Shown here: piece by piece, positions 42,307 to 59,803 of the stretch
Numbering within the stretch: the first letter of the stretch is position 1
Layout of the letters: every line of letters starts with the position of its first letter
Assembly (NCBI GenBank): GCA_042408215.1
Contig: JAYFMW010000001.1
Location: forward strand, 32,001 to 96,000
Direction of reading: 5' to 3'
Length of the DNA: 64,000 nt
Source of the DNA: Microcoleus sp.
GTDB lineage: Bacteria; Cyanobacteriota; Cyanobacteriia; Cyanobacteriales; Microcoleaceae
Translations under genes and position numbers: made by a program
Notes under the pieces: model-generated
The model's database searches: none
What the model saw: the letters and a program-made list of their open reading frames with translations, nothing else
Told to the model about the DNA's origin: nothing

Positions 42307-43686
42307 GTGGTAACGCTCTCTAATTCCTATGTAAGCGGTCGCGACCAAGAGTCCTCCGGGTTCGCTTGGTGGTCTGGTAACGCTCGTTTGATCAACCTTT
42401 CCGGCAAACTGCTGGGCGCCCACGTCGCTCACGCTGGCTTGATCGTTTTCTGGGCCGGAGCAATGACTTTGTTTGAAGTCGCTCACTTTATTCCAGAAAA
42501 GCCCATGTACGAACAAGGCTTAATCTTGATGCCCCACGTCGCTACCTTGGGTTGGGGCGTCGGCCCTGGCGGTGAAGTCACGGATATCTTCCCCTTCTTC
42601 GTAGTTGGCGTTCTCCACTTGATTTCATCTGCTGTTCTCGGTTTGGGCGGCATTTATCACGCCGTTCGCGGCCCGGAAGTCCTCGAAGAATACTCTTCTT
42701 TCTTCGGCTACGACTGGAAAGACAAGAACCAGATGACCAACATCATCGGCTATCACCTGATTTTATTGGGTGGCGGTTGCTTGCTGCTGGTTGCTAAGGC
42801 CATGTTCTTCGGCGGTGTCTATGACACCTGGGCTCCGGGCGGCGGCGACGTGCGTATTATCACGAACCCAACTCTCAACCCCGCTGTGATTTTTGGCTAC
42901 TTGGTTCGCTCTCCTTTCGGTGGCGAAGGCTGGGTAGTTAGCGTCAACAACATGGAAGACATCATCGGCGGTCACATCTGGCTGGGCCTGATTTGTATCG
43001 GTGGCGGTGTTTGGCACATTTTGACCAAGCCTTTCGGCTGGGCTCGTCGCGCCTTAATCTGGTCTGGCGAAGCTTACCTGTCTTACAGCTTGGGCGCTTT
43101 GTCCCTCATGGGCTTCATCGCTTGCTGCTTTGTCTGGTTCAACAACACTGCTTACCCTAGCGAATTCTATGGCCCGACGGGCCCGGAAGCTTCTCAAGCG
43201 CAAGCTTTGACCTTCTTGATCCGCGACCAACGCTTGGGTGCTAACGTCGGTTCTGCACAAGGCCCGACCGGTCTGGGTAAATATCTGATGCGCTCTCCTA
43301 CTGGCGAAATCATTTTCGGCGGTGAAACGATGCGTTTCTGGGATTTCCAAGGCCCTTGGTTGGAACCTTTGCGTGGTACTAACGGTTTGGATTTGAACAA
43401 AATCAAGAATGATATTCAGCCTTGGCAAGCTCGCCGCGCGGCTGAGTATATGACTCACGCTCCTTTGGGTTCTTTGAACTCTGTGGGCGGTTTGGCGACT
43501 GAAGTGAACGCATTTAACTTCACTTCTCCTCGTTCTTGGTTGTCCTGTTTCCACTTTGTGATGGGTTTCTTCTTCTTGGTCGGCCACTTGTGGCACGCGG
43601 GTCGCGCTCGCGCTGCTGTCGCTGGCTTTGAGAAGGGTATCAATCGTGAGACGGAAGCGGTACTTTCTATGCCTAACTTAGACTAA
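42307..43686 (+). CDS. psbC: Photosystem II CP43
   Basis: GTG start; [18 protein letters not shown]...HAGRARA. Confidence 0.99.
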
Positions 43687-57518: not shown

Positions 57519-58613
57519 TTAAAACATATCCTTCAAAACTTGTAAAATCAAATCCCCATCCACTCGATCGCTCACCGCAGCCTCACCCAAGCGCACCGGT
57601 AGCACAAACCGCACCTTGCCATCCTGCACCTTTTTGTCCAATTGCAAACTCTTCAAAATCTCCTCAACATCTATACCAGCCGGCAATTTCGTAGGCAAAC
57701 CAGCCTTTTCGATCAAAGCTAACTGACGCCCGTCGCACTCAGCATCCCACATTCCCAACTCCACAGCCAACCGGCTCGAAGCCACCATCCCGATACTCAC
57801 ACCTTCCCCGTGATTCACCAGCTTGTAACCAGTCAAACTTTCCACCGCATGGCCGATAGTGTGTCCGTAATTCAAAATCGCCCGCAAACCCGACTCCTTC
57901 TCATCCTTGCTTACCACCTCCGCCTTAGCTTGGCAAGACCTGCTCAAAATTTCTGCCAGCAAATCCGCCTTCACGTAGCGCATTTGATCCAAACGCCTGC
58001 AACTCTCCAACTTCCCGAACAATTCAGCATCCCAAATCACCCCATACTTAATCACTTCCGCCATTGCCGATCGAAACTCCCTCGCCGGCAGAGTTTTCAG
58101 GACATCCGGGTCAATAAACACCAAACGCGGCTGGTGAAAAGCCCCAATTAAATTCTTCCCTAAAGGATGGTTTACCCCGGTTTTACCACCAATAGAAGCA
58201 TCAACCATCGCCAGCAGCGAAGTCGGAACTTGCACAACATTAATTCCCCGCAACCAAGTCGCCGCCGCAAAACCCGTGATATCCCCAACCACTCCGCCGC
58301 CCAAAGCCACCATTGTCGAAGAACGTTCTAAGCGGTTTTCCAAAGCCGCGCCGTAAATCTTCTGCACCGAATTTAAAGTTTTGTACTGTTCCCCCGGTGG
58401 TAAAATGCAGTTACCGACATGAAAACCCGCCGATTCTAGGGCCGCAGCCGTCTTTTCCCCGTAATGCCGAAAAATCGACTGATTCGAGACCAGCAGGACT
58501 TTTTTGCCCAAATTCAGCCCGCCCAGCAGCGTGCCGAGTTCGTCTAAACCGCCGGAACGCACGCAAACATTGTAAGATTGTGGGCCCAAGTCAACTTTAA
58601 TTACTGATTGCAT
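57519..58613 (-). CDS. aroB: 3-dehydroquinate synthase
   Basis: [38 protein letters not shown]. Confidence 0.98.
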
Positions 58614-58675
58614 ATTTATCTACTTTAGATATTAGATTTTAGATTATAGTTCTTATAGGTCTTTTTATAAAGAAT

Positions 58676-58967
58676 ACCCTGAAAACCCTGTGACTTTAGT
58701 CCAGGGATGAAAGGGCGTTGCAGGATTTATCCAGCCAGCCCTCTTTATGCAAGACACAAACCACATTCTGTTACCAGAAAAATGTGGGATGGATACACAG
58801 ACGCAGGTCTATACCAGCAAATGCCTACCACAAGTAGCCATAGACTCAGCAATGGGCGAGTGGGTAGTGGGTTATTGACAAACCCTTTAAGAATCAAGAT
58901 TTGGGTGGATTCATCCCCCAAAGTTTGTCCTTAAGAATCCCCGTGTCTTTAGACCGGGGAGTGTCAA
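58676..58967 (+). mobile_element. Non-autonomous IS200/IS605-derived MITE (tnpB deleted, right end/reRNA region retained)
   Basis: Left hairpin CCCTG.GACTTTAGTCCAGGG; right end AAGAATCCCCGTGTCTTTAGACCGGGGAGTGTCAA resembles the right end at 15923; left boundary approximate. Confidence 0.75.
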
Positions 58968-58989
58968 TGATTGTTTTGGAGAAATTGCA

Positions 58990-59240
58990 GTCAGCACCCC
59001 GCACTCTCTGTAACGGCTTCATGCCTAAAACTTCAGTTAGTTGACCAGCTATCGTCTTAACTGACTACGTTTTTTGAGTCACGACACCGGGAGAATGCGT
59101 AGCTAGTTCCTCGCTCTGTCGTCAGTGGTTAAACAGTTTTACTCTTAGGTAAGACAGTGCTGCTGACCTAACAAGCTCATTAAACATTGACCGACAAGCT
59201 AACATTACCCCGAAAGGGAGGCTCTAAAAAAGAGCAAACC
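58990..59240 (+). ncRNA. HEARO / IscB omega-RNA scaffold
   Basis: Ordered motifs GTCA.CACCCC, GTTGACCAG, CTACGTT, GACACC, GAATGC..GCTAGTTCC, GCTCTG, TTAAACAG, CAGTG, AACATTG, ACATTACC. Confidence 0.8.
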
Positions 59241-59450
59241 ATTATGCGTACAGGGTGAAAGGTTTGAAGCAGTAATTGTCCTGTTGAAAGTTCATTACAA
59301 AAGAACCCCGAACTAAGTAATTCCAAGGCGGTAAATGTGTAAATATTCAAGGCGGTTTCAACCGCTAGTGTGATGCCCTTCCTCGTAGTCGAAGGGTCGT
59401 TTCCCTCTCAGGTCTAAAGACGCTGAGTTTCCCACTTACCGAGGATTTTT
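58990..59450 (+). mobile_element. Non-autonomous IscB-type element (iscB deleted)
   Basis: Starts GTCA; HEARO motifs; ATGCGT stub at 59244; terminal hairpin CTCAG..CTGAG; followed immediately by ATGA. Confidence 0.75.
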
Positions 59451-59552
59451 ATGACTCTTAGCGGAATAATAACTTATTTCGGGCTGTTCGGCGGAATGCT
59501 GGGCGTGGCGACAGTGTTGATGTTTGGTCTGCGGGCTGTCAAACTCATCTAA
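59451..59552 (+). CDS. petL: Cytochrome b6f subunit PetL (absent from the ORF track)
   Basis: Manual translation MTLSGIITYFGLFGGMLGVATVLMFGLRAVKLI*, single TM with GLRAVKLI end. Confidence 0.85.
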   Translation: MTLSGIITYFGLFGGMLGVATVLMFGLRAVKLI

Positions 59553-59803
59553 TTTACCCTCTAATTTAGATGTGAGAACCAGAGGATTTAATCTCTGGTA
59601 AAAGTAAGATTTTGGCGATCGCATTTTCGGAAAAAATCTCTAGTTTGCTCTGTAGATTTACGGCGCAAGTGCGATCGCCCCTGAGCAAATAATTGATTTA
59701 AAGCAAAAAATATATTAACTCGCAATCCTGCTTTCCCGTAAAATAACTCGTACCTCCCCCAAATCTCCAATCCAAAATCTAAAATCTAAAATCTAAAATT
59801 GAG

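Follow-up and report, generated by a model that had tools for sequence, protein, structure and literature searches.

Two separately inserted, protein-less IS200/IS605 elements flank the petL leader of a Microcoleus genome, a predicted guide for both TnpB and IscB

In this study, we examined a locus of the cyanobacterium Microcoleus sp. at which a TnpB-family and an IscB-family element, neither encoding a protein, lie on either side of the 22-nt native leader of petL. The reading that we favor, with a probability of about 0.6, is that two unrelated non-autonomous IS200/IS605 elements arrived by separate insertions, and that the guide they share is a by-product which would lead them home to vacant alleles. 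The arrangement is real and recurrent, and most likely a by-product of two target motifs.

Results

Anatomy of the locus

The window, i.e. the whole stretch of DNA analyzed, comprises 64,000 nt of the forward strand of contig JAYFMW010000001.1 (positions 32,001-96,000; assembly GCA_042408215.1, 7.36 Mb in 30 contigs, G000 in our genome comparison), position 1 being its first letter. Both insertions sit between the aroB start and petL (Table 1). As a preliminary description of this DNA had noted, the right end of the TnpB-family element (...GTGTCAA, last base 58967) and the HEARO start (58990) are co-oriented and 22 nt apart; the box that it had drawn (58933..59240) touches both elements but covers each of them only in part. 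At the empty site of relatives, TTAT runs straight into the 22-nt segment and this segment into the petL ATG, so it is native host leader. Short heptamer-type repeats, which recur elsewhere in the genome, border the region at 58618-58655 and 59768-59800. Elsewhere in the window, an Rfam match to the IsrR antisense RNA (160.8 bits) lies at 42715-42901 on the minus strand.

Table 1. Features of the petL region, in window positions
Feature	Position	Strand	Remark
aroB	57519..58613	-	divergent neighbor; start at 58613
TTAT target motif (TAM) of the TnpB family	58665..58668	+	host sequence; kept at the empty site
Protein-less TnpB-family IS200/IS605 element (PATE/MITE), 299 nt	58669..58967	+	exact insertion relative to empty sites
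Left-end hairpin of the TnpB-family element	58686-58706	+	
Predicted reRNA scaffold (retained 3' end of tnpB plus right end)	58832..58967	+	alignment with tnpB-bearing copies and consensus fold; putative boundary
Native petL leader, 22 nt, GGAG at 58978-58981	58968..58989	+	predicted 3' guide (TnpB) and 5' guide (IscB)
HEARO/omega-RNA scaffold, pseudoknot apparently broken in part	58990..59208	+	Rfam RF02033, 111.4 bits
Protein-less IscB-family element (ISC, N|ATGA type), 461 nt	58990..59450	+	far end as in two intact iscB elements
Far-end hairpin of the IscB-family element	59407-59427	+	
SD-like GAGGA from the end of the IscB-family element	59441..59445	+	5 nt before the petL start; presumed ribosome-binding site
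petL	59451..59552	+	Pfam and NCBIfam (PetL); first four bases, ATGA, are the target motif of the IscB-family element

The TnpB-family element

The genome holds 63 paired-end elements of this family, 61 of which are preceded by TTAT. An open reading frame of more than 350 aa is found in 26 of the 63, which have their ends in common with the petL-site element, and in 22 of these 26 the tnpB frame is at least 400 aa long with all three RuvC motifs. The petL-site element has subterminal hairpins at both ends, a right end finishing in TCAA and, judging by the exact empty sites in relatives, an insertion 3' of TTAT without target duplication, as in non-autonomous IS200/IS605 elements. Thirteen other young copies agree with it at 289-299 of 299 positions, two of them being identical. 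The Y1 transposase (tnpA) has 13 near-full-length matches in the genome, and a TCAA-type right end lies no more than 2.2 kb from eight of them; none of these 13 bears the exact left end of the 299-nt element's family.

Both mini-element subfamilies retain the last ~136 nt of tnpB elements, i.e. beyond the terminal hairpin. The helices of the predicted scaffold are 91-100% paired across 47 distinct right ends in the consensus fold, and the loop UGAC and the terminal GUCAA are present in all 47. Since UGAC can pair with the terminal GUCA, a pseudoknot of the reRNA is suggested by complementarity, covariation being slight (one two-sided change); the arrangement agrees with the ISDra2 reRNA pseudoknot as given in the available text of PMC10097598. 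The scaffold, for which degeneration beyond folding or binding had been considered conceivable, appears intact by this fold. Cognate TnpBs (e.g. C20:699165-700614) have glycine in place of the RuvC-II glutamate, with an E-x-YTS motif, a pattern resembling, by motifs alone, the rearranged RIIr-5 group in the accessible part of PMC10691335.

The IscB-family element

A covariance search with the HEARO model (RF02033), as the preliminary description had proposed, returned a match to the full model (1-211) at 58990-59208 on the plus strand, with 111.4 bits against a gathering score of 83. HEARO matches in the genome number 70, with 64 above the cut-off, and the petL copy ranks 54th of these 64 by score. 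The element begins with 5' GTCA and is inserted directly before ATGA without target duplication, as N|ATGA ISC elements are; ATGA follows all 56 defined HEARO far ends in the genome, which were found with patterns that themselves required ATGA. No open reading frame of more than 60 aa is present in 58990-59450, so that iscB is missing and the element is a derivative. Elsewhere in the genome there are 15 iscB frames of at least 380 aa, two with a far end equal to that of the petL-site element. Intact tnpB and iscB genes are encoded in this genome, cognate ones including a tnpB element at C30:188393 and iscB elements at C8:38568 and C3:407065, so that the objection of missing cognate proteins, which the preliminary description had considered, does not apply.

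The petL HEARO retains three of the five model pseudoknot pairs, with a mismatch at the second pair; the copies at petL in two relatives, G082 and G059, have four and five of five, respectively. Pseudoknot disruption abolished the activity of OgeuIscB (PMC9640706, available text). The HEARO pseudoknot appears damaged, and the IscB arm of the petL copy may be weakened. The altered pseudoknot strand (59186-59200) is also found in one other HEARO copy (G000:C10:102467-102690), which hints at conversion between copies.

Genome-wide, 39 of the 56 HEARO elements with a defined far end precede an ATG that opens at least 50 codons, compared with 18.5% of ATGA sites after non-coding DNA, so that in G000 these elements lie mostly at host start codons. 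One such element (G000:C19:25403-25629) precedes a 34-codon frame that resembles PetM, and two small cytochrome b6f genes may thus be hit.

Predicted guides, targets and folding

The guide of TnpB is found 3' of the right end, that of IscB on the 5' side of its scaffold and transcribed from outside, and both direct cutting of the vacant site (10.1101/2023.03.14.532601; PMC13565253; available text of both). By this flank geometry, the petL leader (58968-58989) is the predicted guide for both scaffolds, in keeping with the original suggestion. Because only about 12 (TnpB; PMC10097598) and about 14 (IscB; PMC9640706) TAM-proximal pairs matter, according to the parts of these papers available to us, each guide fits within 22 nt and neither insertion spoils the target of the other. 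This genome holds no perfect target (TAM plus 16 nt) for either guide. A guide aimed at another host gene was rejected on that ground, the best TnpB sites having three mismatches with an 8-nt seed or, at three sites, four mismatches with an 11-nt seed; the best IscB site has two mismatches with a 3-nt seed. Since no perfect target exists elsewhere in the genome, the predicted targets are vacant alleles of the petL site (homing).

The whole region folds better than shuffled sequences (z -2.86). For the uncut transcript, a model without pseudoknots or proteins predicts a hairpin between 58968-58974 and 58987-58993 (pairing probability 0.84-0.88), which covers the HEARO start, the TnpB seed and the terminal part of the IscB seed. 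Further, a 22-nt stretch should be unable to yield two 16-nt guides from one molecule. The earlier proposal of a scaffold-guide-scaffold RNA that either protein could use as it stands is therefore not supported, given the apparently damaged HEARO pseudoknot, the predicted pairing of both seeds and the shortness of the stretch. Since one molecule gives one guide only, competition is to be expected, and a dual-purpose RNA is not.

Alleles of the petL site in relatives

Among 79 genomes of the genus, the site is uninterrupted in 61, carries the TnpB element alone in two (G005, G008) and a HEARO element alone in three (G006, G082, G059); the double allele is found in G000 only. In the remaining 12, another IS605-type element lies just upstream, 34 nt before the petL start and with nine host bases lost; six of these were recognized from sequence and six by split coordinate (L014, L015, L017, L022, L125 and L126 among the loci). 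The junctions are exact in the empty, TnpB-only and HEARO-only alleles, which establishes two separate insertions. The G006 HEARO copy, 68% identical to that of G000 and with a different far end, is a separate insertion as well. In total, at least four distinct insertions have occurred within 34 nt of the petL start codon across the genus, lending support to the alternative of an insertion hotspot that the preliminary description had raised.

The G082 and G059 HEARO copies (L123, L124) sit at the same ATGA and are 92-93% identical to the G000 copy, whose best match inside its own genome reaches at most 82%. Their hosts lie across a 99/99 split from G000 in a short two-gene tree, and the copy is missing from the closest relatives. 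Transfer with homing would be the simpler reading of a HEARO copy common to two host clades; the other, an old insertion that would have been lost many times, precisely, is compatible with the similar identity of the flanks (88-92%). By sequence identity, the two elements at petL appear to differ in age, the TnpB element having identical genomic copies and the HEARO copy being at most 82% identical to others here.

Gap statistics and other loci

Under independence, 0.15-0.76 double alleles would be expected at petL among the 79 genomes, kin not being independent, and the petL adjacency alone is not beyond chance. Across this genome, a co-oriented right end lies 10-40 nt upstream of 4/69 HEARO starts, compared with 8/5187 called gene starts, in a gap window picked after the data were seen and with gene starts from a simple ORF caller (first ATG, at least 100 codons) that misses small genes. 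The four lie at 20-35 nt, and the arrangement thus recurs at other loci, where the preliminary description had suggested that it be sought. With the petL locus left out, the count is 3/68 (P=2e-4; allowing for general clustering at a fourfold level raises this to P=0.009), and genome-wide adjacency probably exceeds chance. An excess of TTAT near start codons was rejected as the cause of the 20-35-nt gaps, TTAT density being flat over 0-200 nt.

All co-oriented gaps from right end to HEARO in the genome measure 20, 22, 27, 35, 73, 171, 248 and 393 nt. Outside this genome, the gaps that were validated measure 21, 27, 34, 68, 83 and 86 nt (those of 18 and about 38 nt are weak cases); no length is clearly preferred, and no validated gap is shorter than 18 nt. 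Most relatives are represented by fragmented assemblies, in which short unique stretches between repeats get lost. Pattern scans matched 45/351 genomes at the level of the order (mostly noise, with few validated among the 50 loci read) and 4/401 in the phylum; a GTDB-wide scan gave 23 loci with one weak HEARO, and a metagenome scan 52 loci with no HEARO, a first metagenome pattern having given 0.

At C26, the double has a gap of 20 nt. Both motifs are empty in the sister genome G008, and either element was found at those sites in 0/19 relatives read (20 of 75 matched genomes were read); C26 represents two lineage-specific insertions 20 nt apart. At C8 (G000:C8:83915-84300; L127-L130), relatives show each of the four allele states (30 of 77 matches read), and the double in G000 has lost 21 nt of leader beside the HEARO, which reduced the gap from 56 to 35 nt. 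At G000:C5:595816-596343 (L157-L186), IscB-element ends from several subfamilies are found at one start codon in 12 of the 30 genomes read, and G000 has an IS605-type right end where relatives have a TATAA-type -10-like box.

Transcription and petL translation

We examined contigs from four runs of four studies, of 23 listed; two are RNA runs, and one of the four possibly stems from the source sample itself. All four studies have runs in which the double allele was seen. In both RNA runs, contigs bridge the leader and HEARO (58942-59071 and 58939-59088) as well as the far end and petL; they reach just 26-29 nt into the right end, short of the 31 nt that we required for a bridge across that junction. 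Neither strand nor ends nor level can be read from contigs, and their presence in RNA libraries is not proof of transcription; all it shows is that wild populations, and RNA libraries, contain the petL double allele. Contig depth was set aside as evidence of expression, a DNA run having shown the junction at 3x aroB depth. Removal of the HEARO element from petL mRNA by splicing was likewise rejected, no joint skipping either element being seen in the two RNA runs, although contigs drop rare forms. A promoter scan gave no sigma-70 site on the plus strand and no terminator.

In cyanobacteria, petL may be dispensable, for which a literature search returned no confirmation. GAGGA is predicted to pair with the anti-SD at -5.9 kcal/mol, compared with -6.4 for the displaced native leader, and the end of the IscB-family element would by this measure give petL a replacement SD of similar strength. 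A general rule of element-borne SDs was rejected (mean pairing -2.9, compared with -3.2 for native leaders).

Discussion

From the anatomy, independent origin, allele states and cognate genes observed here, we infer a route of transcription, processing, loading, cleavage and homing. One element lies after TTAT and the other before the ATGA start of petL, the two motifs being 22 nt apart in a leader that has been hit repeatedly. The double allele would have arisen stepwise or via recombination between single-element alleles, and because TnpB takes its guide from the 3' side of its scaffold and IscB from the 5' side, the leader would have become both guides as a by-product. Transcription would proceed from a host promoter or from the TnpB element through to petL, and trimming would turn each molecule into a reRNA or an omega-RNA, never both. 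The guide would then be loaded on a TnpB or IscB produced from another locus of the genome and direct the cutting of alleles without the respective element (TTAT plus leader, or leader plus ATGA), and repair of the cut allele would copy the element back. As it carries neither junction, the double allele would be immune to both nucleases and could convert empty and single-element alleles. Of the two arms, that of TnpB looks intact, while that of IscB, as discussed, may be weakened in this copy. Homing and the use in trans of standalone omega-RNAs are both published (10.1101/2023.03.14.532601; PMC10691335; available text). Against a drive stands the dominance of empty and single-element alleles in the genus, so that any drive is far from sweeping; against a pure by-product stand the excess of 20-35-nt gaps in this genome and the C26 pair, which it leaves unexplained.

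These last observations lead to an alternative which is compatible with our preferred reading but which we consider unlikely, namely that one element raises the odds of the other's arrival or survival nearby, making the adjacency non-random. Through its outward transcript, the TnpB element could supply the promoter that has no place within an IscB omega-RNA, or a nuclease break in the vacant site could expose single-stranded DNA where TnpA inserts the second element; IscB needs outside transcription (10.1101/2023.03.14.532601), and TnpB cuts 15-21 nt from the TAM (PMC10097598), as far as the available texts go. The surplus of right ends before HEARO starts relative to gene starts speaks for it, as do the absence of validated gaps below 18 nt, the lineage-specific double insertion at C26, with its empty sister site and unoccupied relatives, and the fact that one of the 13 other young TnpB-family copies also lies 20 nt before a HEARO (P=0.006 relative to non-coding TTAT sites). 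Further, co-oriented right ends occur within 400 nt of six HEARO loci, and left ends that face the opposite way within 450 nt of none, the corresponding counts for gene starts being 15 and 20; left ends are, however, detected less well than right ends (99 vs 242), which makes the 6:0 only suggestive. Weighing against coupling are the scattered gaps outside this genome, the single weak HEARO of the GTDB-wide scan and its lack in the metagenome scan, the post hoc gap window and the origin of the 35-nt gap at C8 by deletion. In its fullest form, one element would make the landing site or promoter for the other and so generate right-end-to-right-end pairs just over one guide length apart, which draw both guides from one transcript, are immune to both nucleases and convert every other allele, including any that arrive from other species: a natural two-nuclease gene drive on a host ribosome-binding site. 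We hold this, too, to be improbable.

It is also rather doubtful that the elements are inert relics at an insertion hotspot, whose RNAs are not productively loaded and which merely lengthen the petL leader. The repeated insertions near the start codon and the number of doubles expected by independence fit such relics, and so do the apparently damaged pseudoknot and low-ranking score of the HEARO and the hairpin predicted over both seeds. They are harder to reconcile with the ~136 nt of tnpB elements kept by both subfamilies, with well-paired helices in 47 distinct ends, with intact cognate nucleases and with the patchy occurrence of one HEARO copy in two host clades, which fits homing. Least credible, and in our view very improbable, is a composite dual-guide unit under selection, either mobile as a whole or domesticated by the host to regulate petL or target foreign DNA. 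It could draw on the single young TnpB subfamily that makes both the C1 (petL) and C26 doubles, on the occurrence of the allele in runs of four studies (one possibly the source sample) and on the SD that the element's end restores to petL. Yet the doubles differ in spacer and HEARO copy (77% identical overall), each spacer being local host sequence, which largely refutes a composite transposon with the 782-nt block of elements and spacer as its mobile unit; in addition, the petL double is limited to 1/79 genomes, 0/9 plasmid records with a match cover 80% of the unit, and no RNA joint skips either element.

If both arms work, the separate insertions that we favor offer a natural test case for the interaction of TnpB and IscB, i.e. 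for guide competition on one transcript, for the donation of a promoter and for what becomes of the four allele states that related species hold. The orphan omega-RNA copy in two host clades makes homing between species testable, and petL, a host gene, would now be translated from a leader supplied by an element. Should the adjacency be merely a by-product, the locus is a clean teaching example of known biology.

Each part of the arrangement is known, as PATE-like derivatives, N|ATGA ISC elements and standalone omega-RNAs, while for the shared guide our literature search, with two key papers and preprint supplements outside its scope, turned up no account in which one guide serves both a TnpB and an IscB element. 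The TnpB-family element resembles PATEs and the Geobacillus ISGst1-5 elements (10.1101/2023.03.14.532601) in its hairpin ends, a TAM at the left end, a guide taken from the right-end flank and the lack of a protein, with nucleases and TnpA encoded elsewhere. It differs in standing right end to right end with an IscB-type element, one flank being the predicted guide for both, a pair that the available text of that preprint does not describe. The IscB-family element shares with ISC1-1_MA and other N|ATGA ISC elements (Kapitonov, Makarova, Koonin, PMC4810608) the 5' GTCA and an insertion directly before ATGA without target duplication, as given in the accessible text; the petL copy, in contrast, lacks iscB, and its target ATGA serves as a host start codon, a term absent from that main text. 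Like the standalone omega-RNAs that act in trans (Altae-Tran et al. 2023, PMC10691335; available part) and like RF02033, it is a mobile, effector-less scaffold with compatible effectors in the genome; unlike the former, its predicted guide is shared with a second nuclease family and its pseudoknot appears impaired. Finally, the locus recalls the conflict between intron and guide in IStrons (10.1101/2023.11.20.567912), where, according to the available text, one transcript has two mutually exclusive fates. There, splicing is opposed to guide use within one element; at petL no spliced form was seen, and two elements would compete for one guide.
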